This document shows, piece by piece, positions 3,000 through 64,000 of a stretch of 64,000 bases of DNA. The translations under genes and the position numbers were made by a program. Every line of letters begins with the position of its first letter. Within the stretch, counting starts at the first letter, position 1. The notes below the pieces were generated by a model, which saw only the letters and a list, made by a program, of their open reading frames with translations, did not search any database and was not told where the DNA came from. The DNA comes from Dictyostelium discoideum (lineage: Eukaryota): NCBI GenBank assembly GCA_000004695.1, contig CM000154.2, positions 4,384,001-4,448,000 of the forward strand. The letters run 5' to 3'.

Positions 3000-3154
3000 C
3001 TGATTTTTTTCTTGTGATTTGTTTTTTTTTTTTTTTTTTTTTTTTGTGAGAAAAAAAAAAAAAATCAAAATCCAAATTTTTTTTTTTTTTTTATAATCAA
3101 TTCAAAAAATAACAAATAAAAAATAATTAATTAAATAAATAATATTAAACAAAT

Positions 3155-3214: not shown

Positions 3215-5650
3215 ATGAAATCATTTTTAGAAATTACAGGAGAAAATGGTGATACACCAACAACAAGTTATTTATTTTCAGATTCTGATAGATATTTTTT
3301 TGATTGTGGTGATGGATTTCAAAGATTCATTAAAGGAAGGTCAAATATAACATTTGGTAAAATTAAATCAATATTCATAACATCATTATCATGGGATTGT
3401 ATTGGTGGGTTAATTGGTCTATTCTTAACTATGGCAGAATTGAATATTAAAGTTCGTTTATATGGTCCAAAAGGTTTACATAAATTATTTACATCATCAA
3501 GAGAATTTCAATATCAATTGAATGTAGAAATTTATGAAGTTGATTCAACAATAATTCAAACTATTAAAGATGATTCATTTACATTTTATACATTACCAAT
3601 TACTAATAAAAACAATAAAGATGATGATAATGATGAAATTAAATCGATTATTGATGAAAGTAAAACTCCAACTTTAGCATATTATGGTAGAAATCCACAA
3701 CCTATACCAACAACTATTGAGAATGATTATGAATATGAAGAAAGTTCAATAGTTTGTTATATTGGTATGACAAAAGATTTTAAAGGTAAATTCTATCCAG
3801 AGAAAGCTGTAGCATTAGGTGTACCAAAAGGTATTTCATTTAAACATTTACAAGATGGCAAATCTGTGACAAATAAAGATGGAGTTACAATTACACCTGA
3901 TCAAGTTATGGATAAATCGATTAAAGGTACAAAATTTGCAATCATTAGATGTCCATCAATTGAATATTTACCAAGTTTAAAATCACATCTTTCAATGTTT
4001 ACAGATATTCATATTGTAAATCATATAGTTCCAAATGAAGTTTTATCAAATTTAAATTATATTAAATTTATGGAAGATATTAATCAACAATCAACAGCAG
4101 CAGCAATTAATACAAAACATATTATTGTAAATAATGAAAATTGTGAAAGGGTTTCAGGTTGTCAATCATCTGATAATCAAATTTTAAAACTTCAAAAATT
4201 TATACCATCATTATTTCCAATGAAACAACAATCTAGTGAACATGATAGTTTAGTTAAATCAATTGAATTTTTAAATGATTCAAAAATATTAAAAGATCAA
4301 ATTAATGTTTTCCCATGTAAAGAAACTACAAATTTAATATTAGGTCCACCACAAAATGCAGGTGATATTGAATTTTTACCATTAAATAATAATAATAATG
4401 GCGAAGGTGGTGTTGATTCAAATGAAAATGAAGGTTCTTCTGATAATAAATCAATGGAAGAATTTATAAATACAGAACAAGGTCAATTATTTAAAAAACA
4501 ATTAGATCAACAAGTTGAACAATTAGAATCAAATCCAAATAAATGTTGTCATCCAAAAATATTATTCACAGGTACAGGTTCAGCAATACCAAGTAAATAT
4601 AGAAATGTTACAGGTAATTTCATAACATTGGCAGATGATCAAAATATTCTATTAGATGCAGGTGAAGGTACATTTGGTCAATTGTATCGTTTCTTTGGTC
4701 CAATTGAAGTGAAAAAGCAATTAATTAATTTGAAAATGATTTGGTTATCACATTTACATGCTGATCATCATTTAGGTATACCAAATATTTGTGAAAAAAG
4801 ACAACAATATGCTCAAGAATTAGGTTTAAAAGATAATGAATTAGAGCCATTAATTATAATTGGACCAGAGGCATTGATTCAATGGGTTAATGAATTATCA
4901 GTTATTGTAAATTTAAAATTCATTGGTATTGCTATCAATGGTAATCATTCAAATCAATTGGTACAAACTTGTAAGAAATTAAATATTAAATCATTTTCAA
5001 TGGTACCTGTAATTCATTGTAATTATGCTTTTGGTTTAGTTATTGAATGGAATGATGGATTCAAATTAACTTATTCAGGTGATACTCGTCCTTGTAAATT
5101 CCTATCTGAAATGGGTAAAGATTCATGTGTACAAATTCATGAAGCAACTTTTGAAGATGAAAAACAAATGGATGCTGTCTCAAAAAGACATTCAACTGTT
5201 GGTGAAGCTTTAGAAGTTGGTAGATTAATGAATTGTAAATTCTCTTTATTAACTCATTTTAGTCAACGTTATCCAAATTTAAAAATGGGTACATATAAAG
5301 ATACAAATTATGGTTTGGCAATTGATTTACTTCAAATTTCACCTTATCAATATCCATTAGTTTATAAAATGATTGAACCATTTTCTTTATTATTTGAAAA
5401 TGAAGCTCAAAAGAAATTAGATAAAAAATCAACTCAACCAACAACAACAAGTAAATCAAAATCTACAAAAACAGAAGATGAAAATAATACAATTGAAAAA
5501 GATGCTAAAAGATTAGAGAAATATCAAAATAAATATAAAGATGAAGTAATATTACCAGCTTATGTATATAATATTGATTCAAATTCTTTAACTTTAATAG
5601 AAAATACATTTGATGATTTATCAAGTCAACCTCAATTTGAAGATGATTAA
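3215..5650 (+). CDS. tRNase Z, long form (ELAC2-type tRNA 3'-processing endoribonuclease), 811 aa, apparently a single exon.
   Basis: ATG at 3215. C-terminal half has the metallo-beta-lactamase signature LFTGTGSAIPSKYRNVTGNFITL..LLDAGEGTFGQL and the HxHxDH motif LSHLHADHHLG. The N-terminal half is a degenerate pseudo-MBL domain (FDCGDGFQRF), as in long-form RNase Z. The length matches eukaryotic ELAC2. Confidence 0.85.
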   Translation: MKSFLEITGENGDTPTTSYLFSDSDRYFFDCGDGFQRFIKGRSNITFGKIKSIFITSLSWDCIGGLIGLFLTMAELNIKVRLYGPKGLHKLFTSSREFQYQLNVEIYEVDSTIIQTIKDDSFTFYTLPITNKNNKDDDNDEIKSIIDESKTPTLAYYGRNPQPIPTTIENDYEYEESSIVCYIGMTKDFKGKFYPEKAVALGVPKGISFKHLQDGKSVTNKDGVTITPDQVMDKSIKGTKFAIIRCPSIEYLPSLKSHLSMFTDIHIVNHIVPNEVLSNLNYIKFMEDINQQSTAAAINTKHIIVNNENCERVSGCQSSDNQILKLQKFIPSLFPMKQQSSEHDSLVKSIEFLNDSKILKDQINVFPCKETTNLILGPPQNAGDIEFLPLNNNNNGEGGVDSNENEGSSDNKSMEEFINTEQGQLFKKQLDQQVEQLESNPNKCCHPKILFTGTGSAIPSKYRNVTGNFITLADDQNILLDAGEGTFGQLYRFFGPIEVKKQLINLKMIWLSHLHADHHLGIPNICEKRQQYAQELGLKDNELEPLIIIGPEALIQWVNELSVIVNLKFIGIAINGNHSNQLVQTCKKLNIKSFSMVPVIHCNYAFGLVIEWNDGFKLTYSGDTRPCKFLSEMGKDSCVQIHEATFEDEKQMDAVSKRHSTVGEALEVGRLMNCKFSLLTHFSQRYPNLKMGTYKDTNYGLAIDLLQISPYQYPLVYKMIEPFSLLFENEAQKKLDKKSTQPTTTSKSKSTKTEDENNTIEKDAKRLEKYQNKYKDEVILPAYVYNIDSNSLTLIENTFDDLSSQPQFEDD

Positions 5651-10536: not shown

Positions 10537-13916
<3,380 letters not shown>

Positions 13917-22091: not shown

Positions 22092-25000
22092 ATTAATTGA
22101 TATTTACATATTAATTTTGGTGGTGAAATTACATTTAGATCAGTATCAAGTAATCAAAGACCTATTTATTCATTATCAACATCATTCAATAATATTCAAA
22201 TTTATGTATCACCAAGACCAATCTCTGGTAATGCAAATAATATTACCTACATAGTTTATTGCCCTCGTTTTGAAAAAAGTGGAAAACAAGTATATAATTT
22301 AAACTCATTTTTACCATTTGGTAATGCTACTATATCAACAATAAGTATAGTATAGATATCCAATTATATATATTTTTAAGTATAAATACTAACAAAAAAA
22401 AAAAAAAAAAATTAATAGGTAAATTTTATAATACTCTAAGTATTTTTAATAATAATTCAGCAAATATAATTTCAAATAATCAAATAGGTGAAGCATCATT
22501 TGATCTTTCATTTGAAAATTTAAAAGGTTACGATTTTAAAACATATCAATACCAATTTAAATCAGGATCATCTATATATTCAGCATTTCCATTTGGATTT
22601 AAGAGTGGAAATAATTCAAAATTTAATTATTTAGCATCGTTTTTAACATCTAATCAGTCAAGTAATCCCACTTCGGAATTAAAAGTTGATGAAATTACAT
22701 TTCAAGTAACTCCTAATCAATTGGTTCTCACAACAGATGATACTCTCCGTATTGAAGATTTAAGATTTTTAGAAGCCACCAATTTTAAATTTGTAATTAG
22801 AATTATAGCTGGTAGTAAATATTTAGTAAAATACTTTATTATACCATTAAAAAATGGTTTAAATATAAAGATTGACAATAGTAATGTTATTTCTCAAAAT
22901 TTATTACTTGGAATTTGGGAATATATTTTCGATGCTTTTTCATATGGAACTGATTTTGAAGGTAATATTATTATCTATAATTTCAATGATCAACAAAAAT
23001 CATATTCATTAGGATATCCATATGATGCAAAAAAACCTAACAATATTTTATCATTACCAAAAACTGATCTATCAAGTAAGTATACTTTATTAATTTTATA
23101 AAATTATTATTAAAAAAAATTTAATTCTAATTAAAAAATTTATTATTATAATTAAAAGATTGTAATTATTTACAAGATATTAAAAATATTTCATTTTTAA
23201 ATAATAATATTGATTTAACTAATCAAAATGTTGATAATATGATATATTTTTCATTTGGAAATAATAATAATAATTATATTACAAAATCAATTGGATTTTC
23301 ATTAACTGACCCAAAATCATTAAGAGATCAAGGTTTTAATGGTGATATTTCAAAGTATTACAATACAAAATTAACATTTGCAAAATTTGATTCAATTAAT
23401 AATAGATTTAGTGCACCATTTAAAATGCCAGCCAATATAGTACCAGGTCAGTTGGATTATACTATAATATTTGATAGAGATAATATTATTCCAAGTGTAG
23501 CATTACCAATGGAGTATCAATTAAATGTTACAAGTTCAAATGTTGATATTCAAGGACCAATGATAACAAATATAATTTATAATTATAATTCAATTTCTTT
23601 TGGTTGGACAATTACAATTGAAGACTCAATAAATGGTTTTGATAGTGGTTATATTCTAATTAGAGGTGTAATTGATAATTCATTATACAATATTTCATTC
23701 TCAAATAGGGATGGTAAAAATGGTAATAATAAATTTAAAAACAATTATGATATTCTAATAGAATTAGATAAAACTCATAAGTGTACATCACAAAATTATT
23801 CAATCAATTATGTTTATTTAGTTGACACATTTGGTAATGAAGCAACATTTTATAAACATGCAACTGATATACAATTAAATAAAATGGTTTATAATTCGGA
23901 TTCAACTGGTAATCCATTAATAAATTTTATAAATCAACAAAATTTATTTAGTATTTTATCACCAGATTATTGCAACTCTCCTCAAGTTGATTCAACAATT
24001 ACTTTACTTAGTTTTAATACAACCACTACTGAAATAGATGCTGGTTCAATTAATAGATCTGTAACATTTGATTTTGAAGTACAAGATTCTGTTTGGGGTT
24101 TAAAAAAAGATCAATATCCAATGGTTTATTTAATTTCTCAAGATTTTAAATCGGTTCAATGTGTCTCTAAAATTGTATCTTTAAATGATTTTAAAGGTGT
24201 TTATCAATGTACTTTTGATCAATTACCACTAGGTTTTGGCTTTCCAAATGGTTTGAGTATATCAGTTTATGGTTTCATTAATAATGGTGGTCAATTTTAT
24301 GGTTTCTCATCATCAATGTTAAAGAGTTTAGGTTTTAAAAATTTTATAAGTGTTTTACACTATAATCCAAATTTAATATTCATTACTGGTACAAGTGAGG
24401 TAACTGAATTAGATAGTGAATTCTTAATTTATGGAACTGCACTCACAAATGTTATTACAGCTAGAATAACTCTTTCAAATGGTACTCTTATAGAATGCCC
24501 TTGTAAAAGTACTTTTAATAGTATTCTCAAAGTTTTATTTTTCCCAATTGGTATTAAAGATCCTTTTACAATTACACTAAATGGAGTTTTAAATGATTAT
24601 TCAAATGTTTACCCGGTTACACCAATTCAATATAATTTCAAATATGAACCAATAATAACTGAAACTCCAATAGTTACATACCCACCTCAAAAATGTAAAG
24701 GCTCACCAGAATGTGGTGGTACATCCAATGGTTATTGTTCCAATTCAGGTTGTATTTGTTATTCACCATGGTTTGGAATTGATTGTACATCTCAAATTAT
24801 AACAGTAGCTCCACCATTGATTGATACTGATAAACCAATAACATCAATTGATGTACCAAAAGATTCAAATGGTAATAATATAAAATCAATTATATCAATT
24901 GTTGCATTAAGAGAAATTAATTCAGTAACAAATGAACAAATTAAAATTCACTATTTTGAAAAATGGATTTATAAAAATATCTCCTCAACGATTTCACAAT

Positions 25001-25722
25001 ATACAAGTAATATTACAAATGGTGATGGTGATGATGGTAAGCCAATAACCACTACAACCATCACAGCAACTTTAGAATGGTTTTCAGAGAGTAGAAATAT
25101 TTCTTTCGCAAATCAACAATTAATTATGAATCCATCAAGTATGAAATATACCATAGAACTTTCATCATATGCTTTTTCAAATTCATTATCAAATTTACAA
25201 GTGGTAATGTCTGCTCAAATTCAATCAAACCAAAAAAATATTTGTTCAGATAAAGATTTTGGAAATACTACAATGGAAAATTCAAACTATATAAAATTAC
25301 AAGTCGCATCTAATAGTTTCTATGGAAGATATATTAAACGTGGTATTGTTGATGGTAAATTCATTACGGTTGAAAATGAAATTTTAGATTCAAAATTTAA
25401 TGCAATTCAAAGTGAAAATACTGCTCAAACTTTTATTGGTATTTTAATTGGAAGATATGTAAATTATGCTATTATAGATCCAGACTTTTCAATATTAATT
25501 GAATCAAACTCTGCCAATTCCAATTCTCCAAATTCAATTTGTTCAGCATCAAATTCAACAAAAGTTTCAACTGGACAACTTATTGGTATAATCATTGGTT
25601 CTTTTATTGCTTTCTTATCATTGTTAATAATTGTTTTATTCCTTATGTATAAATCTCCTCATTGTTTATTTTTTAAAATTTTTATTTATAAAATTACTAA
25701 AAAGTCAAAAATAAATAAATAA
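21679..25722 (+). CDS. Type I transmembrane glycoprotein with IPT/TIG-like and EGF-like extracellular domains (Tgr-like architecture). Exons are 21679..22024, 22144..22344, 22419..23075 and 23159..25722.
   Basis: ATG at 21679 with a signal peptide MYGNRILFFLILFSLLCLVNG. Exon 1 to 2 uses donor T|GTAAGC at 22025 and acceptor atcAG at 22143; the alternative, donor GT at 22023 with acceptor tttAG at 22138, adds 2 aa. Exon 2 to 3 uses donor A|GTATAG at 22345 and acceptor attaatAG at 22418, with a tactaac-like branch point. Exon 3 to 4 uses donor A|GTAAGT at 23076 and acceptor aaaAG at 23158. All three junctions are phase 1 and frame-consistent. The last exon has an IPT/TIG-like segment (PNLIFITGTSEV..LIYGTAL.NVITARITLSNGTLIECPC.....L.V.F.PIG......ITLNG) and an EGF-like module (CKGSPECGGTSNGYCSNSGCICYSPWFGIDCTS). 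There are many N-x-S/T sites, a TM helix LIGIIIGSFIAFLSLLIIVLFLMY, and a short basic tail. Confidence 0.65.
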
Positions 25723-26370: not shown

Positions 26371-28340
26371 TTATACAATAATACGAAGATTTGTATTAAG
26401 ATTATTATTTCTATTATTAGAACCACGATTACGACCTCTAGTTACATATAAGACTGATACAATAGTTGTTGAGGTTGGAGGGTAAAAATAAGAATCTAAA
26501 TTAACCAAATAACTACGAAGCAATAACTCTTTCATGAACTGTACACCTTGAGTATTGATATTGTTATGGTTTAATTGTATTGAAGCCAATGATTGATTGT
26601 ACCATAGAGCTTCACATAAGGCTTTAGCACCATCATTTGTGATACCATTACCAGAAAGGTTTAATTCAGTGATTGATTGATTTTGTTTTAATGAATCACT
26701 TAGAGCTCTACAACCTTCATCACCAATTTCATTTCCACGTAATTGAAGATCGGTGATTGTTGAATTTTGACGTAATGCTTCACCCAAACGTTTTGCACCA
26801 ATTGGACCCAATCCATTGGTACACATTGAAAGTTTTGAGATTTTCTTATTCATTGCTAAACCCTCAGCTATATGAATTGCACCAAGGTGACCAATTTCAG
26901 GATTGATTGAGAGATCTAGTATCTCTAAAGATCTATTTGTTTTCAAAGCATTACCAAGTGAAGTGGCACCGCTTGCACCAATATTATTGAAAGCCAATGA
27001 TAAATTAATGATTGAATGATTTTGAGCTAGAGCATCCCCCAATTGAACGGCACCTTTATCACCGATTGAATCACCGGTCAAATCGAGATAGGTTATAGAT
27101 TGACACATGGATAAAGCGGCAGCCAATGGTTTTAAACCTTTGTAATTGAATTCGTTTCTTGACATATCGAGATAGGCAATCGTTTGACTGGCTTGAATAC
27201 CTTCGGAGATATATTTCATACTTTCGGGTGATAGTTTAGTATCACATAAATTTACAGAAGCAAGACAAGGATGTTTTCTAATGGCTTCACCAACGTATTT
27301 CGAACTCTTTTCATTGAGATCATTCTTTGAAAAGTCAACCTCTGTTAGTGAACTATTCTTACCAATGGATTCCACGATGAAATCGATACCTTTGGCGCCG
27401 AATCTATTTTTAGAGAGATTAATGGTTTGTAGGATCGTAGTGGATTGAAGTGCTTGACCCAATGCTTTTGAGCCTTTGAGACCAATACAATTTTGTGAAA
27501 GATCCAAATTGATTAGGGTGGTATTTACCAATATCGCTTTGGAGATCTCTTCGGCACCCTCATTACCAATGGAATTAAAACTCAAATTCAAATGAGTGAT
27601 GGTTTTATTTGCCAACAAACATTCACCAATACAATGTGCTGCTTTATTTCCAATACCATTTTGTGAGAGTTCCAATGTCGTGATTGTGGTATTTTTGGTT
27701 AATAACATCCTAACAAAACTTGATACATCGAAAAGGGTAGGTGTTGATACCTTTAGTTGAAGGTTTATTAAATTTGGATATACATTATTTGAAAGATTAC
27801 GAAATAAATTGGTAATACTACGATCTGGTGGTAATTGATAGGTATAATTAACTAATCTTCCAACTGATATCTTTCTCCATTTACTACATACACTACATAT
27901 GTTTGTAAAATTTTGTGAATTTGGTTCATCTTTATGTGCTTTACCCAAAATATTGGAAATAATAATATCTGCTAATGATCCAATAAATGGTGGTCTTTCT
28001 CCTGGTTTTAATAATATTTCTGGTGTTTCATATGTTATATTATTTGGTGCTGATTGATTATTATTATTATTATTATTATTAGGCGGAGTGGTTGATGATG
28101 TAACCCGTGGTGATTGGTTTGATGCACTACTTCCACTTCCTGCCATTAAATTACTTGATGATGATGATGTCGACTCCTCAATCGAATCTGAATTTGTTAA
28201 ATTTGTTATTGAATTATCGTTTTTATTAAAATTATTGTTATTATGGTGACTTATTTGTGGCGATGATGTTGGTTCTTGTTGATTACCATTCCCTTGGTTA
28301 TTATTGTGGTTATTATAATTATTGCTATTATTATTATTAC

Positions 28341-28380
<40 letters not shown>

Positions 28381-28806
28381 GTTATTATTACTATTATTAT
28401 TTGATTGGAAATGATAATTTTGTAAATGTTGATGAATATGGTGTTGTTGCATATGATTTATTGGGTGATTATTGTTATTACTATTATTATTATTACTATT
28501 ATTAATATTATTATTATTACTATTATTATTACTATTATTATTGTTGTTATTATTACTATTATTATTATTATTATTATTGTTATTATTGTTATTATTATTA
28601 CTATTACTATTACTATTACTATTACTATTACTATTACTATTACTATTACTATTATTATTATTATTATTATTATTATTTTTATCCAAACCAGGTTGGTGAT
28701 ATGATGCTTGATCTGAAATATCTATATCCTCTTTTTTTATTTGCGTCTCTAAATTGTTTGATTGATCTTGTCCTGATATAAAATAAAATTGATGATCAAC
28801 ATTCAT
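26371..28806 (-). CDS. F-box/LRR-repeat protein (RNI-like leucine-rich repeats) with an Asn/Gln/His-rich N-terminal region. Single ORF.
   Basis: ATG at 28806. Low-complexity poly-N/S/Q N-terminus. An F-box-like motif follows: GSLADIIISNILGK...FTNICSVCSKWRKI. Then come about 14 RNI-type LRRs (L.LS.N.IG..GA..L..AL..N.T), each roughly 28 residues. Confidence 0.7.
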
Positions 28807-37496: not shown

Positions 37497-39041
37497 TTAT
37501 TTATTTCTAATTTTTCTTTTAATTGAAACTCTTTCTAAATTATAATTTGAACATTCAAAAGCTTGAAAAGGTGGAACGAAATGAATATAAGTTCCAATTG
37601 TTATACAAGCAATAATCGGACCAACCATATATGGCCAAATTTTATTAAATATTCCAGTTACAATTGCCGGACATAAACATCTAGCCATATTAAATCCAAA
37701 TATATAATTTGGTGAAATACCAGATGATGCAATAATTGAGAAACCTAATGTAATTGATATGAAAAATGCACCAACTGCTCCACCAATTATTGGAGTTTGT
37801 CTTCTATCCAGGGCAGTTCCAAAAGCAATATACAAATTTAACATTGAAAACATGAATTCCATACCAAGTGCTCCACCACTACTTATATCACCACCATATG
37901 TACACATACCTAAATTTGTCCTTTTCATAACTTCGAATGGAATTATACCTCTAATAATCGCTGATCCAATTATACCACCTGTAATTTGAAAAATAATATA
38001 AAATAAACATCTTATAACTTTTTTTTTATTACACCCCACTCTATTAATATAAAATTATAATTATAATAAATTATAATAAAATTAAATTAAATTAAATTAA
38101 ATACATACAGGATGTATAACCTGAAAAGAAAGTTGCAATTGTAATTGACGGATTTAAATGACCACCACTAACAGGGGCACAAGTTAAAATTAATAAGTAT
38201 AATAATGGTACATGTAAAACAGCAGAAGTTGCAGGCACTCTATAATTTGGTACAGAATTTACCAATGTTTCACCATTAAAATCATTAAGATTTGATATAT
38301 ATGAATAATCAAAATAATTTACAGACGAAATGAAAATACCAATTGACATAAATAAAAATAAAGCACTACCAATCATTTCTGTAACTGATGCTTTGTATAA
38401 TTTACTATCGAATAATTCATTGTATCCTGATATTCTTATAATTTCATTTATTAATTTATCTTTAAATTTTAATTTATTTATTTCACTTTTTTCATCAATT
38501 GATGATTGTTTTGATTTTAAATCTTTTTCACTATTCTCATAATCATCGTCATCATAATTATAATATTCATCATCTTTAAATGACTTTGGAGATATTAAAG
38601 TACTACTTGTATTATTATTATTATTATTGACACTATTACCACTACTACCACTTCTATCACTTCTACTATTATTACTAATATTTGATTCAATATCATAGTT
38701 TATGGGTATTTCTAAATCTATTTCATCATTTTCAATACCATCATTATGATGTTGATTTTGTTGATGTTGATGATGTTCAAGATGTTGATGATGTTGATGG
38801 TGTGGGTGGTGTGGATGATGTTGATGGTGTTGATGGTGTTGACTTTGATAAATATGGTGTATTGTATGTCTTTTTCCATAGTCATTATATTCATCATTAT
38901 TATTAGAACCATACCTTATTAAGCTAGCATACTTATAAAATGGAGCTGCTAATTCATATCTAATTTTTTTTCTTCTCCTTATACTTATATTACTACTATT
39001 ACTATTTCTACTACTACTATTACATGTACTTGGACTTTTTA

Positions 39042-39110
<69 letters not shown>

Positions 39111-39147
39111 TACTACTAATACTATTACTATTACTATAACTACTCAT
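37497..39147 (-). CDS. Major intrinsic protein (aquaporin family) with a long Asn/His/Gln-rich N-terminal extension. Exons are 39147..38109 and 37978..37497.
   Basis: ATG at 39147. About 250 aa of N/H/Q/S/D-rich low complexity follow, including HHQHHQHHPHHPHHQHHQH. The first half of the MIP fold ends ...SGGHLNPSITIATFFSGYTS, then the donor T|GTATGT at 38108 (phase 1) and the acceptor ttacAG at 37980-37979 give C-GIIGSAIIRG.... The second half, FGFNMARCLCPAIVTG, sits in the position of the second NPA box. Hydrophobic helices are typical of MIPs. Confidence 0.75.
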
Positions 39148-42906: not shown

Positions 42907-45500
42907 TTACATTTTATCCCAAGACCAAACTTTAAGATTACTAGCTAATGAACCAGTAAATAATTGATTTTGATTTCTCCAAAGACAAAGAATTGAAGAT
43001 CTTGTATTGAGAGAAGCTAAATTTTCGTATTTATCATGACTGAAAACTTGTAACCAATCACCGCTACCTGCAAAGATACCTTGATTAGTGACGTGAAGAG
43101 TTTCAACACGATCCTTACATTTGATGGTATTGACGCAACGTGTAGTTTTAAGATCCCAAATTCTAATAGTTTCATCATGAGAACCACTGTAGAGCATATT
43201 GTTATGAGCGTAAAGTGTTTTGACCCAACCTTCATGACCTTGGAAATTGGTGAGAATAGTACCAGTAGCTAAATTCCAAACGTAAATTTGTTGATCATTT
43301 GAGCCAGAGAATAAGAGATTACCCATTGCGCAAACCGATTTAATGGCACGAGTATGACCTGATAAAGTTTTAACGCATTCATATGATCTCATATCCCAAA
43401 CTTTAACGGTTTTATCGTTGCAACCAGTGTACAATAGATTGTCTTGAATGAAAATGGTATTGACTTCGTTGGATTCTTTGATCTCTTTGATGGTTTGTTG
43501 AGTGTTGATATCCCATTCCTTAACCAAAGAGTCTGCACCTGCTGTCAAAATATTTTGATCGAAACCTGGACGTTTAATGACTGCTCTAATCGATTTACCA
43601 TGTGCTTTAATGTTGGTAACATGTTTCAATTCAACAGCATCCCAAACACCGATTTGGCCATCATTTGAACCACTATATAATCTTAAACTATCACCAGTGA
43701 TACATTCTGATTGTAAACCTCTAACTGTATCGATATTCTTTATTGATGTTAAATCCCATTTTTCAAATTCTGAACGATCTGGTGTTTGTTCCATTGATGA
43801 TGTTGATGTCGATTCTGGTGTTGGAACATTCGATGATGATGTTGACGATGCTGATGCTGCTGCTGATGATGGTTGAATTGGTTGTTGTGGTGGTGGTGAA
43901 TTTCTAGAAACTTGAATTGAAATTGGTGCTGCATTTGTAGTTGATGATGATGAAGATGATGAAGATGATGATGATGATGAAGATACGCTACTACTATTAC
44001 TGTTAACACTACTACTATTGCTACTATTATTTATATTATCATTATTATTATTATTATTATTACTATTATCATTGTTACTGCTGATGCTACTATTATTATT
44101 ATTTATATTATCTTGTTCTAATTTTACATTACTATTTTCTTTTGGTGGTGATACAGGTGATTTATTTACTACATTTGATTGTGAAGGTGTTTTTACAATT
44201 TGAGGTACAGGTTTTGAAGTTGGTGAAGAAGGTGATTGCTGTTTATGTAAATTATTACCAGATGGTTGTTTAACCAATGGTGGAGAAGGTTTACTTTTTT
44301 GTTGTTGTTGAGCTCTAATTCTTTCCAATTGTTCTTGAAGCATTTTCTCTTCATCATCTAATGAGATTGGTTGTTGAGCACCACCACCATTTCTAAAGTA
44401 ATTCATATCGTAGTTATTCTTTGGACCACTACCATTACCATTCAACCCGATTGCATCATGGAAATCCATTAATTGTACGACGGGTAATGTACCTCTTAGG
44501 AGGGCTTTCTTTGATTGATTGATTGGTTTCAACTTTAAAAAGTCACAAACTGGATTACACTTGTGTGTTTGAAGGAATTTGTGGAAACCCGTCTCGCCCA
44601 AATTACCCTCGCCAAAGCCCTCGCCTGATTTCGTATGAATTTGAGGATCAGTGTAGAAATCGTTGACACCTTGGATATCAACGATCAACAATTCATGATT
44701 GGAGAGTTCGTATGAGAAATGAGAGAATGATTGTGGTGTATTTCTAGCATCACTACTAACGTAACCACTGTTGTTGTTATGTTTCTTGTAATCTCCCTCA
44801 ATGAATGGTTCACCACCACAAACTGGATAAGGTGGTGGATGATCAATCAATTCGTAAACGTATGATGGTAAGAATGTAATTGGTTTTGGTGGTTTCGCTT
44901 CATTGAATTTCTCTGCCCATTTAGCACAAAATGTTTGCATCAATACATCTGTAAAGTATGAATCTCTTGTCGTCTTTTTATTGGTTGAAAATTTACCAAC
45001 TAATCCTTGATCTGGTTGACTCCAATCCTTTAATTTATGTGCTGTTCTACAACTACCCTTTGCAAATGGAGTCTTCTCAATTGAAACACATACAATACTA
45101 TGTGTCCATTTTGGTTTTAAATCATCACCAATTGTTAATTCCCATCTTTTTTTTTTAATAATAAAAAATAATTATTAGTAAATTTAATAATAAAAATTGA
45201 AAAAAAATTGAAAAAAAAAAAAATTAAAAAAAATTAAAACCATACTTTATTGCTCTTTCACATTTTGTACCTGCAATAACATCGGCAACTGGGAATTTTT
45301 GATTTAATAATGCCAAAGCTGTCATTTGAAAAATAAATAAATAATAATAATAAAATTTTAGTTTTATTAGTAATTTGTTCAACTTTTTTTAAAAAAAAAA
45401 AAAAATAGGTTTCTATGTAGTATAAAAAATATAAAATAAAATAATATTTATTTAAAATTGATAATTTACCTGCTGCTGCTCCTGTTTTTTTTTCTTCCAT
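42907..45500 (-). CDS. Alpha-kinase/WD40 protein of the myosin heavy chain kinase (MHCK B/C/D) type. Exons are 45500..45470, 45318..45246 and 45145..42907.
   Basis: ATG at 45500 gives MEEKKTGAAAG|GTAAAT (phase 1). The acceptor gacAG at 45320-45319 leads to ALALLNQKFPVADVIAGTKCERAI, then the donor AA|GTATGG at 45245 (phase 2) and the acceptor aaaAG at 45147-45146. Exon 3 begins KWELTIGDDLKPKWTHSIVCVSIEKTPFAKGSCRTAHKLKDW... and continues to ...DIQGVNDFYTDPQIHTKSGEGFGEGNLGETGFHKFLQTHKCNPVCDFLKL, the alpha-kinase catalytic domain including the GNLG and CN..C motifs. A Ser/Asn/Gln/Pro-rich linker follows, then seven WD40 repeats (GSNDGQIGVWD, GCNDKTVKVWD, GSNDQQIYVWN, GSHDETIRIWD ...). Stop at 42907. 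Confidence 0.75.
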
Positions 45501-51269: not shown

Positions 51270-53847
<2,578 letters not shown>

Positions 53848-54039: not shown

Positions 54040-55610
54040 TTAGTTATTGTTATTATTAATATTTTTTAAAATGATTGATTCATTAATTTCCCAATCTTGA
54101 TGATTATAAGAACCAATTGAAGTTAATAATTCTTTTGTGCTATTTGACATTTTGAATAAACTATTGATTTTAAAATTTGATACCATTAAATTTTGATTAT
54201 CGTGAATGTGGAATGTTGAATATCTTTTGGAAGACATTCCATTTGATTTTGAAACTAATTCAATCCATTCTTGGTAATCAATCTCTTTGCAATTGTAATT
54301 ATTTTCTAAAAATTTATAAATTGATTTCATTTCAATTGAATTACCATTTAAACTGTAAATTGAAATTGGTTTTGATTTATTTTGATTCCAACTGTTTTCA
54401 TTGAATATTAAATCGATTGTGGTTTTAGCTATAGTTGTAACTGGAGTTGTGAAAATTGATTTATAAATATTTGGATAATAACCAATCTCTTTTGAAGTTT
54501 TTAATAAAAGTGATACGAAATCATTTGAATGACCTATACCTGTTATTGGATTTGAGAATATATCTGTATTTATTATAATAATAATAATAATAATAATAAT
54601 AAAATGTTTATTTTATTAGAATCTATAAATTAAATATTAAAGGTTTATCATATATGATCTATATTTATTAATTACATACCAGGTGGTCTAATAATGATTG
54701 ATGGTATACCTCTTGATTCTGCTGCGTTTGTTAATAATTTCTCTGAAATAACTTTACATTGAATATATCCAATTGGTGTAGTATCAAAATTTGGTAATAT
54801 ATTTGTTTCTTCAAATTCTTCTCCATCTTTAAAAGGATGATTAATAAATACTGCAATTGATGAAAAATGAACTATTAACTTTTGTGAGCTATTATTTGAA
54901 ACTGATAATTTTACAATTTGATTGACGCTGTTAACATTTACAGTTTTACTTTCTTCGTAGTTTGATTTTAAATTTAAATCTGCTGCTGAATTTATAATAA
55001 TATCACATTCATTTGATAGTTTTAAATAATCTTGTTCAGTTAAACCAAATTTATCTTTTGAGATATCACCAATCATTGGAATGATTTTAATTAATTGATC
55101 TTCACTTATTTGTTTATAATATTCACTATTTTCAATATTACTTAATTTATCATTTGATATATTACCTGTATGATTGATTATTTTTGTTAATCTTTGATTT
55201 GGTGATTCTTTGTTCATATTTATTAATTGATGTTTCTTTAAATTATTAATAATTACATCGATTGGATTTGTTAATTTTGAATTATTTCTTATTAAACAAT
55301 AAATTTTTGATATATTGTTCATTTTAATTAATTCTGTTAATAAATATGCACCCAAGAATCCTGTTGAACCTGTTAAGAATATTGATTTACTATTATTACT
55401 TTTATTTAATATATTTTTAATTGAATATGGTCTTGAAATGATTGATTCATTTAATTTCATTTCATTTTTAATAAATTCATCAAGTGATTGTTGTTCTTTT
55501 TTAACCAAATTATTATTATTATTGTTATTTTTATTATTATTAATATTATTATTAATATTATTATTATTTTTATTATTATTATTATTATTATTCTTATTAT
55601 TATTATTAAT

Positions 55611-55641
<31 letters not shown>

Positions 55642-58600
55642 TTATTATGAGCAGATAAAATAATTTCAATTGATTGATTGATTTTATTATTTTGTAATTG
55701 TTGAATTGTGATAATATTATGACCTAATTGATTATCGATAAAATTCTTTAATTGTACAATCACTAAACTATCCATACCATATTGTGTGAGTTGAAGGTCT
55801 TCATTGATTTTAGATTCATCAATTGATAATAATTCACAAATCTTATTTAAAATTGTCGAACGAATAATTTCATTATTATTATCACCATCATTACTACCAG
55901 TGAAAGATTTGATTTGATTTGATTTTTTAACAATATTAATTTCAAAATCAAATTTTGAATGGTATTGATTTGTTAAAGTTGATGGTAAAATTTCAAAATT
56001 GAAATCTGATAAACAATAGTTTGGATATTGATGTTGATTTTGAATGAATAAATCTAATGAACTAATAACGAGTTGAGGTGAGAATAGTTTTAAAATTGAA
56101 CTCTTGAACATTGTTTCAATTGCATTATTACGTGATACGAAACCAGTTGATGATATCGCACCTAAATTAATGGCTAAAGATGGTAATCCAATTGAATGTC
56201 TATACTTTGATAATGAATCGATAACACTACATGCACTAACATAACAACATTGTTGATCTGATCCCAATATTGAGACTACTGATGATGCCATTATAAATTG
56301 TTTGATATTCCATGAACGATTAATCGATTGATTGTGAAGATTGATTGCTCCAATTGTTTTAGCACCATGTGTATTATTTAAACGATTCATATCGACTTGT
56401 TGGACATCACCAATATCATTCATAAATGCAAAATGAATGATTGAATCAATATTTGTAATATTTTCATTTAATTCTAATTGATTTAATACTTGATTAACTT
56501 TATTTGAATCTTCAATATCGATTTGATTGAAATGGAATTTAATATTATTATCTTTTTTAAATTTGCTTTGATTGATTAATAATTCTAATTCCCATTTTAA
56601 TTTTGATTTTGAAAGTATTATTATATTTTCAATTGAATCATTTGAATATTTAACCAAATATTTTAATATTTCTAAAACAATACCAGTTTGACCAGTGAGT
56701 AAAATATTCTTACCAATATTTAATTTTGAAATATCATACGAATGTTTCAATATGATTTGATTGTTATTACTTTGATAATTATTATAAACTCTATTAAATT
56801 CATCTTGATTGTGATTAACAATGATTTTACCAATATGTTTTCTTTGATTTATATATTCAATTGCATCTTTAAATTGATTATTTGAATATTCAATGATTGG
56901 TACACTTAACTCTAATTTATTTGAATTAATCATTTTGATAATTTTCTTTAAATAGCTTTTGATTAATTTACTTGTGAAATCTTCTACATACACATTACCA
57001 TAGTTCATATTAAATTTGTAATGATTGTTTGTCATATAATCATTTGATGTGAGATGAATGATACTTAAATCAACGATACGTCCTGATAAATTTAAACATT
57101 GGAAATTTGAATCCATATACTCTGATGATAATGTATTTAATATTAAATCTACACCTTGTTGATGTTGTTCAACTACACCTAATTCTATTAATTTATTCTT
57201 AATTTCATAAACATAATCTTTATTACGAGATGAATAGATAGCAGTAATTAATGATCCATATTTATTTATTAAATATTCTTCTTTATCTTTTGAACCAACT
57301 GTTAAAAATATATAACCTTGATGTTGTTTACTTTTTAATAAATCTAAAGATGATATACCGACACCACCTGCTGCTGAATGAATTAAAATTGATTCATTTG
57401 ATTTTAAACTACCAATACCATAGAGACTATGTAATGATGTAATATAAACAGATGGTATTAAGGCTGAAACTGAATGACTATAATTTAATGGTTTATAATA
57501 AATGTAATCATAATCTACAATAATATGAGAACTACTTGTTTTTGAGCCGACACCACAAACTTGATCACCAACTTTAAATTTCTTTACATTACTACCTAAT
57601 CTTGTGATTATACCGCTAAAGTCTTTACCAATTTTTGGATTATTAAAACCAATACAATTTTCAATTTCTTTACCATATTTAATATCTAAATTCGTACCAA
57701 TCATACCGATATACATTAAATAATCTTTATAATTCATACCAGTTGCTTTAATTTCTATCTCTACTTCATTTGAATTTAATTTATCTTTTTTACTATATAA
57801 TTGATATTCTAAATTTGAATTTAATTGAATACATAAATTATCTTTATTGTTTTCAAATGATTTAGATTGAAGTTTTGATTTAATATTATTTGATCTTCTA
57901 CAATATCTTTCATAGTATACTCTATTATTGTTAATCGTAAATTCTTTTTGAATATTATTATTTGGATTGATTAAATAATTGATTAATGATAATTGTTGAT
58001 TATTTTCAATTGAAACATTATCATAATTTAAAGTTAATAAATCTAATTGTGGGAATTCAACGAAATAACGAGCAGCACCAACAATTGATGATGATAAATA
58101 ATTATCAGTGCTTGAATTTAATGATAATAATAAATGTTTGAAATTATTTGATAATTCTAATTTTAATATTAATTGATTAATTTGAATGTATTCAAATGTG
58201 ATCTCTTTGAAATTTGAAGTATTCATTATTGATTCAATTGATTTTAAAAATATTATTAATGTTTTATTACAATCATCTTTAGTTTGATTATTTGTGATCC
58301 ATGATTGAAATTCATTAAAATTATTAATATTAATGATTTTATGTTTTAATTCTTGATTTAATGTTATTGAATCAAGAATACTACTGCAACTATTTCTATT
58401 ATTATCACTATTATTATTATTATTATTATTATTGTTATTACTAAATAAAATAATATTATTGAAAGAATTTAATTGATCTAATGATATTGATTGTTCTGAA
58501 ATGATTTCATTAATTGTTGGTTTTCTAGTTTGAATTAAAAATAGTAAATTATCATTACCAGACATTATTGTATCTCTATAATTACATTGATTTAAAAGGT

Positions 58601-61600
58601 TGATCCATTTCTCTTGTTTCATACAACATCTATCAGGTCTTAATTCGATATCACTATCAGAGGATGGCCACCATTGTGAAAAACAACCGAAAACAGAATC
58701 ATAAATAAATGATTTGTGTGGTGGTTCTATTAATAAAAGTTGACCATTTGGTGTTAATATATTATGAATTTCATTTAATGTTGGTTTGAGTTTCTTAACG
58801 ACATGCATAACATTTGACATTACAACGAAATCATAATAGGATGCTTTAAGATCTTGATCTAATAATGGTTTTTCTAAATCTAATACACGATAGATAATAT
58901 TTAAATTGTTGCGATTTGTAAATGATGAGAACTTTTCTTTAATTTCAGCGAAAAATGATGCAGATATATCACTCCATGTAAATTCTATATTAATGATTGA
59001 TGTTGTACTATTATTATTTAATAATTTACAAATCTTTTCTAAAATTAATAAACTAAGACTACCAGTACCGCCACCTGCTTCTAATATACGAAATACAATT
59101 GGTTCATTTAAAATTGGTTTTAGAGTTTCGACTATAATTTCACTTAATAAACTATTCAATGGTTGAACTACTCTTGAATTCTTATAAAAGTCATCAAGAT
59201 AACCACTTTCAAATAATGATTGTGGTGTATCTGTAATGGAATCATCATCTTTTAATGGGAATAGCTGTTTTGCCATTATTTTAGTTGTTCTAATAAATAA
59301 CTCTTCATTTTTTGATTTAATATTACTGTGATCATTGTCAAGGTTAACAATATTACTGTATTTCTTTAAATTTTCAAAAATGAATTTGAAAAGATTTTCA
59401 TTTGCAGAACTATTATAATATAATTGTTTAAATTGATTATATTCTAATGTTGTTAATGATTCTAAATTGATACTTGGACATCTATTATTAATATGTTTAT
59501 AAAATAATGACAATAATGATTCATTTGAAAGAAATTGATTATCTTCTTCTTTGACACTAAATTCATCTACTCTATATAAATGTTTGAATTGTTCAGGTTT
59601 ATTAATTACTGAATCTTTTGATTGAAGATATGGTGTATAGATATTATTTGATGGTGGTTCACATATTATTGTGCTATCAGGATTGGAGTCAAGTGAAACT
59701 AAAGCGCAAACCACATTTGAGATATCAACTAATAATGTACCATTTGGAAGTATGATTTTAACTGATATTGAATATGTTTGAGAATTGGTTCTTGGTTTAA
59801 TATCTGAAAAAACATATAATTCTTTAATATCATCATCATTATCATCATTATTGTTGTTATTTTTATTTAATGATGGAATGTTTGAAGAGTAATATTTGAA
59901 ACCTTCAATTTTATCAAGTACTACTGGTTGTGTGACTGCAACTAATGACCCATGTAAACAAGTATCTAAAATTGCTGTATTTAAAAATGTATTCATATTG
60001 CTATTGTTTATTAAATGATTATATTCTTTTTGATTGTAAATTTCATTTAATGATACTATTGCTAATGAACAATTATTACCGATATGACATTGTTTTACAC
60101 CTTGAAATAAACCTTTGTATGTTAAATTTGTTTTAATTCTAATAGTTTCATAAAAATCTTGTTTTGATATGCTTGTAAAATTACATTTATCTTTTAATGA
60201 TTGAATATTAATTAATTTGTTACTGATGATACTGTTGTGTTTGGTTAAACTAAAATTACCAAGAGATGTTAATATCCATTGATTTGTTTTTTGATCTTTG
60301 TAATAACTTTTGATATTGAATTCATTCTTTGATAGTGGTGCAATTGTAGTTTGTAAACATTGTCTATTACCTTCTGTTAATACTAATGGTGATTTAAATT
60401 CTAATGAGCTAATTGTAATATCTTGATTTGGATAAATTGATAATAAATTGTGAACATATCCCATTCCTGGATAATAGAATTTATCACTAACTTGATGACC
60501 TTTTAACCATTGGAATGGTGATTTCTTGATATCGATAAATGTTTGATATGATGGGTTAGGTGAATCTGTATTATTGCCAAGACCATGAATGGATGGACCT
60601 TCACTTTTAATCTTTTCAAGTAATGAGTTTAGTTTAAAGTATTCTTTATCATCCCATTGGTAAAGTGGTAAATTATTTAATTGGTTTGAATAGTTATTAT
60701 TGTTGTTGTTGATTAATTGTGATTTGAAATTAATATCAAAATTATTTTTGACATATAATAAAGAGATTGTCTTTAAGAATTCATTATAATCATTCTTCTT
60801 TTTATTTAATGGTGAATAGATTGTAATGTTTTTACCATTATTAAAGTAACTTGATTGAGTTGATTTCATTTGATTTAAGTAATATTGTAATGTTGGATGT
60901 GGTGAAACTTCAATGAATGTAATTTCATTACCCATATCATTTGATTCGATATGTTTGTAAAGATTTGTAATTGTTTGTGTGAAATATACTGGTTGAATAA
61001 TATTATCAAATACATAATTTGCATTGAATGGCGAGCTTTGATGATTGAATAAATTGGTTGTAACTGTTGAAAATACTGCTATCGATGGTTGTTTTGATGA
61101 AATATTTAATGAACATACTTCATCTTTAATCATTTGTTGACTTGATGTATGAAATGATGATAATGATCCTAACATTGAACAAAAGATATCATTTGATTTG
61201 AATTCTTTGGTAATTTCATTTAATAAGTCTTCTTTACCTGCGATAACGATTGATGTCGGTGAATTGTAACATGCAATTTCTAATGATTTATATTTAGTTG
61301 TAGATTGATATTTATTAATGAATTCATCTGAACTAATATTAACTGATAACATTCTACCTGTACCTGTGGTTCTATTTTGAGCTACTGATCTATGGTAAGT
61401 CAAGTAACATAATGTTTGAAAATCAATCATACCTGAACAATATGGCGATGATACTTCACCAAGAGAATGACCAATGATAATATCTGCTGAAACACCCCAA
61501 TGTTTATATAATTCATAGAGTGATACTTGAATCATTACATTTGCAGGTTGTGCTAAAATTGGTTGATGAATTGATATTAAATCTTTATCATCAATTGATC

Positions 61601-64000
61601 TTAATTTATCTAAAACTGAATAACCATAATATTTGAATAACTCTTTATCGAATCTATTGACAGATTCTCTAAATATTGGTTCATTATCATATAATGATAA
61701 TGCCATTTTATTATATTGTGAACCTTGACCACATAATACCATTACTGTGATTGGTGATTTCTTTTTTTCAACTGTAATATTTGAAATTAAATTATCACTA
61801 TTATTTAATTTAATTTGATTATTTTCATCTTGAAATTCATTCCAATCACTTGCGATTATAACTGATTTTTGAATTAATGATGTTGATTTGAATTTAATTT
61901 GATTATATACAAATTCTTTGAAACTTGTTGTTGTTGTTGTGGTTGATGAATTTGAATGTTTAATTATTGATGATTTATAATTATTTAATGATGTTGATGA
62001 ATTACTTGAGAGTGGTATTAAATATTTCTTTTTTTCTTCACTTAATTTATTATCAATTTCCATTTTGTGATAATCATTATGATTATTTTCAAATTCAGAT
62101 AATATTAAACAAACATTTGAACCTAAATTAAAATTGATTTTAAATTGTTAATATAAATTATTTGGAAAAAAATTATAAGATGATGTAAATATTTACCAGT
62201 TATACCGAAATTATTAATTAACATGACAGTTGGTTTATTTTCATTAAATTTAATTGGTTCAGTGACAACTTTTAATCCCCATTCTTTAAAATTAATTAAT
62301 GGATTTGGTTCTTTGAAATTAATATTTTGAAGAAATAGTTTATTTTTAAACATTAAACAACATTTAATTAATGATGCAACTCCTGAACATGCTGTTATTA
62401 TTTTTTATTATTTATTATTATTATTATAAATAATATTTAGTGTTAGTAATTAATGATTGACTATGGTTATTTATACAACTAAATTTAATTAACTTACCTT
62501 CAGTATGACCAATATTTGATTTAATTGATCCAACTAAAACTTGTTTATTATTATTATTTGTTGTTGTTGATGCTATATTATTGAAAACTCTTGATATACC
62601 TTCTAATTCTATTGGATCACCAGTTGGAGTACCAGTACCATGAGTTTCACAATAATCAATATCAGATTCATTGATTTGACCATTGGTTGATTTGATTGCT
62701 AATTTGATATTTTCACACTGAGATGATTTCGATGGTGAATAAAAGTTTAATTTATCAAAGTTACCATCGATATTTGAACTTGATCCTTTGATTACACAAT
62801 AGATGTTATTTGAATCTTTGATTGCATCTTTTAATTTCTTTAATACAACGATACCAACACCTTCTGAACGAACATAACCATCAGCATCCGATGAAAATGT
62901 ATGACATCTACCTGTTGGACTTAAAAGACCTAATTGAGTAAATGATTTTGAAAGGTGTGGGTCTATAAATAAATAAAAATTATTTGATAATTAATATATA
63001 ATCTTTTTCTTTTTTTAATTTTTAATTTGTCACATACCTAATAAAAAATTAACACCACCAACAATTGAAACATTTGATTTATTTGATTTAATTGAATTAT
63101 ATCCACAATTAATTGCATTTGATGAACTTGAACAAGCTGTATCAATTGTTAAATTTTCGCCTCTATTTTTTAAAAAAAATAATCATGATAATAACAGTTA
63201 GTATTATAATTAAGTTTTTAGTGTGTGCCAAAAAAGATAAATCAAAAACATACCTAAAATCAAAGCAATAACCTATTCTATTTGCAACGGAATGAGTTGT
63301 GGAACCAAAAATATTATTTTGAGTTTCAAATGGTGATCTTTGAAGAATAGAATAATCAATAGTACTACTACCAATAAATGTACTTGTATTGGTACCACGT
63401 AAACTAATTGGATCAATACCACTATCTTCTAATGCTTCCCATACACCTGTTTGTTGGTTTTATTTTAAAAAACATTATTAATAAATAAAAATAATTAATA
63501 ATTAAAAAAAAAAAAAAAAATGAAAAAATAAAAAAAAAAGTAGAAAAAAAAAAATTTAAAAAAATTTTTGGATTATTTATTTTTTTTTTTTTTTTGGCGC
63601 CATTGAATGAATATTTCCAAAACACTTAACAAATACATACATTTTAATAATAATCTTTGTTGTGGATCTATTGAACTGACATTATCATTGCTTGGATTAA
63701 TTGCAAAGAAGATTGGATCAAATTGTTTCCATTCATCAAGTGGAAGTAAACCAGCAAACTTTGAAACGATTTCACCATTTAAATAATAATTATCAGACCA
63801 TCTTTCAGAAGTTGTAACGATTCCATCTAATCCATTCAATAATTCATTAAATAATTGATTTGGTTTTGAAATTGATTCTTTTAAATTACCACTTGGAAAT
63901 CTTAAACCAATACCAATCACTGCAATATCACCACTATCAACATCATCATTATCATCATAATCATTTCTATCCCTTATTAATTTACTATTTCTAGTATTAT
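54040..64000 (-). CDS. Highly reducing iterative type I polyketide synthase (KS-AT-DH-cMT-ER-KR-ACP-R). Seven exons lie in the window: 64000..63641 (partial, N-terminus beyond the window), 63446..63254, 63162..63038, 62962..62498, 62391..62197, 62122..54680 and 54563..54040.
   Basis: KS domain (supported by motifs): [15 protein letters not shown]...DPQQRLLLK | [13 protein letters not shown]... | [22 protein letters not shown] (active-site Cys) | ...[20 protein letters not shown]...[11 protein letters not shown] | [16 protein letters not shown]...NNFGITG | [10 protein letters not shown]. Donors are GTATGT at 63640, GTATGT at 63253, GTATGT at 63037, GTAAGT at 62497 and GTAAAT at 62196; all acceptors and phases are consistent. 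AT domain (supported by motifs): GQGSQ and GHSLGE. DH (inferred from the region between AT and cMT): [10 protein letters not shown].. region. cMT (supported by motifs): [16 protein letters not shown]-binding. ER (supported by motifs): [15 protein letters not shown] (supported by motifs): [15 protein letters not shown] (supported by motifs): [14 protein letters not shown]. Terminal NAD(P)-binding reductase (supported by motifs): [15 protein letters not shown]. The last intron has donor G|GTATGT at 54679 and acceptor tacAG at 54565-54564, with stop at 54040. The ORF-track MEIDNKL start at 62063 is internal. Confidence 0.85.

Follow-up and report, generated by a model that had tools for sequence, protein, structure and literature searches.

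pks29 of Dictyostelium discoideum: a probable iterative, highly reducing polyketide synthase with C-methyltransferase and terminal thioester reductase domains

The present analysis deals with a stretch of 64,000 nucleotides of Dictyostelium discoideum DNA (contig CM000154.2, positions 4,384,001 to 4,448,000), called the window throughout the paper, and with the polyketide synthase (PKS) gene found at its right end. The coding region was located on the minus strand at 54040..64000, where codons 6 (partial) to 3106 and the stop codon are covered. After splicing, a frame of 3,100 codons with a single terminal stop was obtained. In the protein alignment its translation was identical at 3100/3100 positions to residues 7-3106 of Pks29 from D. 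discoideum AX4 (DDB_G0290699, UniProt Q54FQ3, XP_635588.1, EAL62084.1, UniRef100_Q54FQ3), a protein with a full length of 3,106 residues. By this identity, the assignment within the pks set, which a preliminary description of the sequence had left to be made, was settled: the locus is the already annotated gene pks29. The names were read from the 90%-identity cluster of the best match in the protein collection, where Q54FQ3 carries the public label “Probable polyketide synthase 29” and also appears as “hypothetical protein DDB_G0290699 [D. discoideum AX4]”. The top matches of the search in this collection were dictyostelid PKSs only. At the DNA level, 0 mismatches were observed over 9,961 nt when the coding region was compared with the 5.29 Mb D. 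discoideum chromosome record CM142511.1. The preliminary description had also proposed that the N-terminus runs off the window, and extension on CM142511.1 confirmed this by placing the ATG 16 nt past window position 64000. The window thus differs from the complete coding sequence solely by these first 16 nt, and therefore only the residues MVQNTD are missing from the window-encoded protein, while none of the 3,100 encoded residues differ.

For the exon-intron structure the minus strand was translated and the exon borders were set at GT..AG; exon coordinates refer to the plus strand. The region has a G+C content of ~23%, and the longest minus-strand frame in the list of open reading frames (ORFs) spans 54672-62063, with shorter coding pieces on either side. 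Seven exons were deduced. Exon 1 (63641..64000), cut at its 5' end by the window edge, is followed by intron 1 (63447..63640, 194 nt, 13% GC), exon 2 (63254..63446), intron 2 (63163..63253, 91 nt), and exon 3 (63038..63162), in which the ketosynthase active-site motif DTACSSS with Cys200 lies at 63123-63143. Then follow intron 3 (62963..63037, 75 nt), exon 4 with the ketosynthase His motifs ETHGTG and NIGHTE (62498..62962), intron 4 (62392..62497, 106 nt), exon 5 (62197..62391), and intron 5 (62123..62196, 74 nt). Exon 6 (54680..62122) is by far the longest with 7,443 nt and extends from the linker between ketosynthase and acyltransferase through most of the terminal reductase domain. That domain is interrupted by intron 6 (54564..54679, 116 nt) and completed by exon 7 (54040..54563), which encodes its C-terminal part and the stop codon TAA at 54042-54040. 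All of these exons and introns lie on the minus strand. The six introns measure 74-194 nt, contain 10-19% G+C, all begin with GTA and all show GT..AG borders.

The seven-exon, six-intron model of the preliminary description was therewith borne out by the uninterrupted spliced frame, the splice borders and the identity to Pks29. As the spliced model is identical to Pks29, it reproduces the public gene model. With respect to intron placement, five introns had been assigned to the ketosynthase region and one to the reductase domain. The sixth intron indeed interrupts the reductase, and four lie in the ketosynthase proper; the fifth was found in the C-terminal extension of the ketosynthase, in the linker toward the acyltransferase. 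The base composition of pks29 by codon position (12.5% G+C at third and 30% at first positions) matched the expectation for real Dictyostelium coding sequence. Exon 6 stays open for ~2,480 codons at a random stop frequency of 9.4% of codons, calculated from the base composition of the strand, which corresponds to a chance of ~1e-106. A frame open by chance was thereby ruled out.

Domains were defined by Pfam scan, and catalytic residues by motif location combined with alignments to solved structures. Pfam positions are given in the numbering of the window-encoded model. The scan yielded, in this order, a ketosynthase (KS), an acyltransferase (AT), a dehydratase (DH, weak), a methyltransferase (MT), an enoyl reductase (ER), a ketoreductase (KR), an acyl carrier protein (ACP), and NAD_binding_4, with E-values from 3.6e-61 to 1e-7. 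Together with the structure alignments this supported the order KS-AT-DH-cMT-ER-KR-ACP-R (cMT, C-methyltransferase; R, reductase) read earlier from catalytic motifs. All seven motifs quoted for that purpose, among them GSTGFLG, were each detected once and in the expected order.

The KS domain (residues 30-412, 62315..63929, minus strand, as all domains below) is full-length and runs across introns 1-4 (PF00109 E=3.6e-61, PF02801 E=2.4e-27; model 24-406). Its Cys-His-His triad is present with Cys200 of DTACSSS, His339 of ETHGTG and His384 of NIGHTE, and the C-terminal extension was recognized at model residues 409-507 (PF16197 E=1e-10). The AT domain occupies residues 580-903 (60768..61739; PF00698 E=1e-40, model 574-897), with Ser671 provided by GHSLGE; in the alignment with the corresponding domain of Pks16, a fatty acid synthase, an E-value of 7e-76 was reached. 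Its specificity motif reads SFHT and matches SFHS of the malonyl-using Pks16 and AFHS of CurL; the AT of Pks29 is therefore of the malonyl type. The DH domain (residues ~936-1258, 59703..60671) was weakly detected by Pfam (model 960-1249) but aligned well to the DH of Pks16, an active fatty acid synthase (PDB 9NJU, E=2.3e-51). Both catalytic residues are conserved in this alignment, namely His994 in HxxxDxxxxP, where Asp takes the usual Gly position of HxxxGxxxxP, and Asp1171 in DTCLH (DxxxH).

Further downstream, the ER domain (residues 1902-2220, 56817..57773) scored above the gathering threshold with PF08240 and PF13602 (model 1896-2214) and carries the NADPH-binding motif HSAAGGVG of the HxxxGGVG type. 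A shorter Asn run was observed between cMT and ER. The catalytic domain of the KR (residues 2259-2442, 56151..56702; PF08659 E=4.2e-24, model 2253-2436) contains TGQTG, Lys2373, Ser2398/2399 and Tyr2412, and aligned to the Pks16 KR with E=3e-46 and with Lys, Ser and Tyr conserved. Its active-site motif is YVSAC (residues 2412-2416, window 56229-56243, minus strand), which places Cys2416 at the Tyr+4 position and is the single deviation noted among the domains. The ACP (residues 2530-2621, 55614..55889; PF23297 E=1.4e-32, model 2524-2615) bears the phosphopantetheine-attachment motif GMDSL with Ser2570 and is separated from the R domain by a poly-Asn/Lys linker that is encoded by a 47-copy ATT/AAT trinucleotide array (55509..55648, minus strand).

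The cMT was mapped to residues ~1414-1630 (58587..59237; PF08242 E=4.7e-13, model 1450-1584). It aligned to the C-MT of CurJ (PDB 5THY, E=4.7e-24), and further matches included PsoF (PDB 6KJG), LovB (PDB 7CPX) and others. With these domains the cMT of Pks29 has the S-adenosylmethionine (SAM) motif I and the His...Glu dyad in common, while identity is low outside the core, and CurJ stems from a bacterial modular PKS. The SAM motif reads LEAGGGTG, and the dyad consists of His1558 and Glu1584: Pks29 and CurJ share the NV(L/M)H His and, at an equal spacing of 26 residues, the Glu. Among the D. discoideum PKSs, Pks30, the product of the neighboring gene, has been used as the reference for an active MT (PMC12828403). 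The SAM-binding and catalytic His/Glu residues, for which the preliminary description had recommended a check, were thus found intact.

The terminal reductase domain (R or TR, thioester reductase) covers residues 2701-3106 (54043..55376, minus strand) and was recognized by PF07993 (NAD_binding_4, model 2695-2974) with E=1.2e-45 and 156 bits at a cut-off of 20.1. The best NCBIfam model was TIGR01746 “thioester reductase” (E=9e-51). Both models place it in one family with the thioester reductases of Lys2, carboxylic acid reductases (CAR) and nonribosomal peptide synthetases (NRPS). The best match among solved structures was the terminal reductase of MxaA (PDB 4U7W, E=8e-27), and the R domain of a type I PKS (8V1X) as well as NRPS, CAR and fatty acyl-CoA reductase (FAR) domains were also matched. 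MxaA, from the myxalamid PKS/NRPS, has an alcohol-forming R domain and served as the redox-active reference. Common to both are TGxTGFLG, the NADPH Arg and YxxxK: TGSTGFLG of Pks29 (2702-2709) aligned with TGATGFLG, Arg2730 in CLIRNNS, the predicted NADPH 2'-phosphate Arg, with CLVRSK, and YIQCK with YAQSK. The catalytic triad comprises Ser2873, Tyr2904 and Lys2908. Differences concern the first residue of the triad, which is Thr in MxaA, a low-complexity insertion of ~30 residues in the N-terminal Rossmann part of the Pks29 domain, and the origin of MxaA, a bacterial protein whose reductase closes a modular NRPS module. No sign of degeneracy was detected in the R domain, as GxxGxxG, the NADPH Arg and Ser-Tyr-Lys are all kept. 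Since this holds for the cMT as well, the degeneracy named beforehand as a possible refutation was observed in neither domain. Several Dictyostelium genomes also contain stand-alone gene models of 418-441 residues that resemble thioester reductases and show 36-42% identity to the R domain of Pks29.

Among fungi, highly reducing PKSs that end in an R domain, such as the betaenone synthase Bet1, have the order KS-AT-DH-cMT-ER-KR-ACP-R and release a reduced, methylated chain reductively. They belong to a different eukaryotic lineage, and their likeness to Pks29 is one of domain logic. Closer at hand is Pks16, the principal fatty acid synthase of D. discoideum, which has been solved by cryo-electron microscopy (PDB 9NJU) and is built on the same KS-AT-DH-(MT)-ER-KR-ACP scaffold. 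In contrast to Pks29, its MT is inactive and a C-terminal reductase is lacking (PMC12828403), and its KR has Asn at Tyr+4, where Pks29 has Cys. The count of about 40 pks genes given in the preliminary description, together with its remark that nearly all of their products are unknown, agrees with the published 40 PKS genes of mostly unknown function (PMC12625978) and with the study in which all 40 D. discoideum PKSs were modelled (PMC12828403; Mol Cell Proteomics 2025). According to the latter, 21/40 carry an offloading enzyme after the ACP, and 19/21 of these enzymes are, in all likelihood, monomeric thioester reductases. The reductase is therefore the commonest offloading domain of the family, and its presence instead of a thioesterase is usual rather than exceptional. 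A lineage-specific expansion of the PKS family has been described (PMC3188802). The main text of PMC12625978 does not mention pks29, pks30 or reductases.

On CM142511.1, pks29 was found to be the last gene of a head-to-tail, same-strand PKS array. The stretch 4618082-4638421 of this record, upstream of the window, was examined, and the order of the array is an R-bearing PKS of 3,101 residues, a cytochrome P450, pks31, pks30, and then pks29. The other three PKS genes encode proteins that show 90-92% identity to Pks29 and share its architecture from KS to ACP. The end of pks30 (DDB_G0290701, 3,075 residues, 90% identical) lies 837 bp upstream of the ATG of pks29, and the R domain of pks30 is interrupted at the position equivalent to pks29 intron 6. 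Pks31 (DDB_G0290703; 6001-15693 of the same stretch) is 92% identical but differs by its length of 2,623 residues, as it stops after the ACP and has no R domain. No R-domain remnant was detected by tblastn in the 1,354 bp between pks31 and pks30, and therefore the domain was apparently lost cleanly. Between the R domains of the 3,101-residue PKS and Pks29, identity amounts to 89-91%. The P450 gene (502 residues, ~4,620,913-4,622,667 of CM142511.1) lies on the opposite strand between this PKS and pks31; no other candidate for a tailoring gene was seen near the array.

Selective constraint was estimated at the codon level for pks29 versus the adjacent pks30, using 2,615 aligned codons. A synonymous divergence (dS) of 0.09 and a ratio of nonsynonymous to synonymous divergence (dN/dS) of 0.38 were obtained overall, with 0.39 for the R domain and 0.16 for the KR. 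By this measure, the R domain is under no weaker constraint than the remainder of Pks29. Across exon 6 (54680-62122), the divergence of the two genes is a mosaic, with a dS of 0.026 and 99% amino-acid identity in the AT versus a dS of 0.144 and 89% identity in the ER, and this pattern suggests gene conversion between the tandem copies. In an assembly of a wild D. discoideum strain (ACTFIW_000140-000170, 269-kb contig) several full-length and fragmentary pks29/pks30-like genes were observed; the copy number of the array therefore seems to vary between strains.

The remainder of the window offered little that connects to pks29. Its convergent neighbor on the plus strand (51373-53847) encodes 825 residues with poly-Ile and poly-Asn tracts and without a Pfam family, and the two stop codons are 193 bp apart. 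Just upstream of this neighbor, at ~51310, the first difference between the window and the newer assembly (CM142511.1) was encountered. No Pfam family was assigned to the ORF next beyond it, and the Pfam scan of the window genes revealed no recognizable tailoring gene 3' of pks29 within the window. The other annotated genes are a tRNase Z-like gene (3215-5650, plus), a UBE2O-like E2 (10537-12186, minus), a ComC-like DUF7034/7035 protein (23239-25722, plus), an LRR_6 protein (26371-28806, minus), a two-exon aquaporin (37497-39147, minus), and an alpha-kinase with a WD40 propeller (42907-44943, minus). These genes between 3215 and 44943 have nothing to do with polyketide synthesis. A tRNA scan of the window found no tRNA genes.

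Taken together, we consider it highly probable that pks29 encodes an iterative, highly reducing type I PKS of 3,106 residues, similar in its logic to a fatty acid synthase, with the order KS-AT-DH-cMT-ER-KR-ACP-TR and reductive release of its product. What was read directly from pks29 is its identity, its exon-intron structure, the order of its domains and the catalytic residues that each of them carries, while the single steps of the mechanism are derived from the enzyme families and from the family-wide study (PMC12828403). Accordingly worded, the AT would load malonyl units onto the ACP, and the KS would extend the chain repeatedly within one module that is used again and again; the single-module architecture seen by Pfam is consistent with such iterative use. 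KR, DH and ER would reduce the beta-carbon in some or all cycles, and the cMT would add SAM-derived alpha-methyl groups in some of them. Finally, the TR, which is of the short-chain dehydrogenase/reductase (SDR) type, would cleave the acyl-S-ACP thioester with NADPH and thereby yield an aldehyde with a long chain or, if a second reduction follows, a primary alcohol. Release as aldehyde or alcohol, as already proposed in the preliminary description, is a prediction from homology.

We were aware of several observations which weigh against this assignment or narrow what can be concluded from it. From the sequence, aldehyde and alcohol release cannot be told apart. That an iterative PKS possesses a domain is no proof of the domain's action in every cycle (PMC12828403). 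The preliminary description had called the chain fully reduced and possibly methylated; neither property follows from the sequence when a PKS is iterative, since any of its domains may be used in some cycles only, and chain length and number of methyl branches cannot be derived from it either. The Pfam models for the DH scored just under the gathering threshold. The Tyr+4 residue of the KR is Asn in Pks16, DEBS and other KRs, and Cys2416 could alter the KR activity of Pks29. However, all proteins of the pks29 clade, those of D. purpureum among them, carry YxxxC, as do 45/100 dictyostelid PKSs examined, and we therefore regard it as a conserved family variant and not as decay. The score of TIGR01746 on the R domain (173 bits) remained under the curated cut-off of 213, because the low-complexity insertion splits the match. 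Finally, full-text literature searches with “pks29” and “DDB_G0290699” returned no Dictyostelium paper and no product, transcript or enzyme assay for Pks29; the matches to “pks29” were fungal or unrelated.

The insertion and the low TIGR01746 score could also be taken as signs that the terminal R domain has no redox function, acting as a Dieckmann-type cyclase (R*) or as a structural appendage while the chain leaves by another route. Such non-redox R* domains are a known class in fungal PKS-NRPS systems, where they typically lack the catalytic Tyr. Pks29 has retained this Tyr, and the intact triad and NADPH site, aligned to the redox-active MxaA and matched by 8V1X as well, make a cyclase unlikely. 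Moreover, the Pfam scan of Pks29 showed no partner domain that forms an amide or a tetramate, and the dN/dS of the R domain indicates that it is no more relaxed than the rest of the protein. We regard a non-redox R domain as highly improbable. Only slightly less remote appeared the view that pks29 is a redundant recent duplicate, silent or decaying, and hence an incipient pseudogene without a product of its own in an array of variable copy number. Its tandem position beside the 90-92% identical pks30 and pks31 and a fourth PKS, the R domain already missing from pks31, the many family fragments in a wild strain, and a literature search that turned up no expression data would all fit a gene on its way out. 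Nevertheless, the frame of 3,106 codons is intact with canonical splice sites, and so is every catalytic motif; an open frame of this length would be preserved by chance with a probability of ~1e-106. Because of this frame and the dN/dS of 0.38, we judged a silent duplicate to be very unlikely.

A variant at the level of the product, compatible with the proposed reductive release, is that Pks29 serves lipid metabolism as a fatty-alcohol synthase whose long-chain alcohols, saturated or methyl-branched, would go into ether lipids or wax esters. The complete set of beta-carbon reducing domains and the close similarity to the fatty acid synthase Pks16 agree with this, as does the membership of the R domain in the Pfam family of fatty acyl-CoA reductases (PF07993), and the residual ether lipid of a FARAT (fatA-) mutant has been speculated to be PKS-derived (PMC7375469). 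On the other hand, Pks29 belongs to a lineage-specific, fast-expanding clade, as would rather be expected for ecological metabolites (PMC3188802), the array includes a P450 gene, and the cMT looks active, while that of the true fatty acid synthase Pks16 is absent or inactive (PMC12828403). We consider this role unlikely.

For the highly reducing PKS with reductive release favored here, novelty is limited. Public annotation already includes the gene together with its exon model and domain set, and the TR ending has been described for the family. The finding is therefore a correct re-derivation of known annotation with little impact beyond bookkeeping, and the interest lies in what the enzyme makes and what this product does. 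Among the 40 D. discoideum PKSs, only a handful have known products, and in the literature surveyed none was found assigned to a TR-bearing member. As a rather speculative and improbable proposal, Pks29, Pks30, the upstream 3,101-residue PKS and the P450 of the array might jointly produce a long-chain aldehyde or alcohol with methyl branches. This product could act as a developmental or ecological signal, or it could be the fatty alcohol, formed independently of FARAT, that feeds the ether lipids still present in fatA- mutants. Because cMT and TR are intact, both pks29 and pks30 are sensible targets for knock-out or for expression in a heterologous host, and the results could be matched to the metabolome of the phosphopantetheinyl transferase (PPTase) mutant (PMC12625978).

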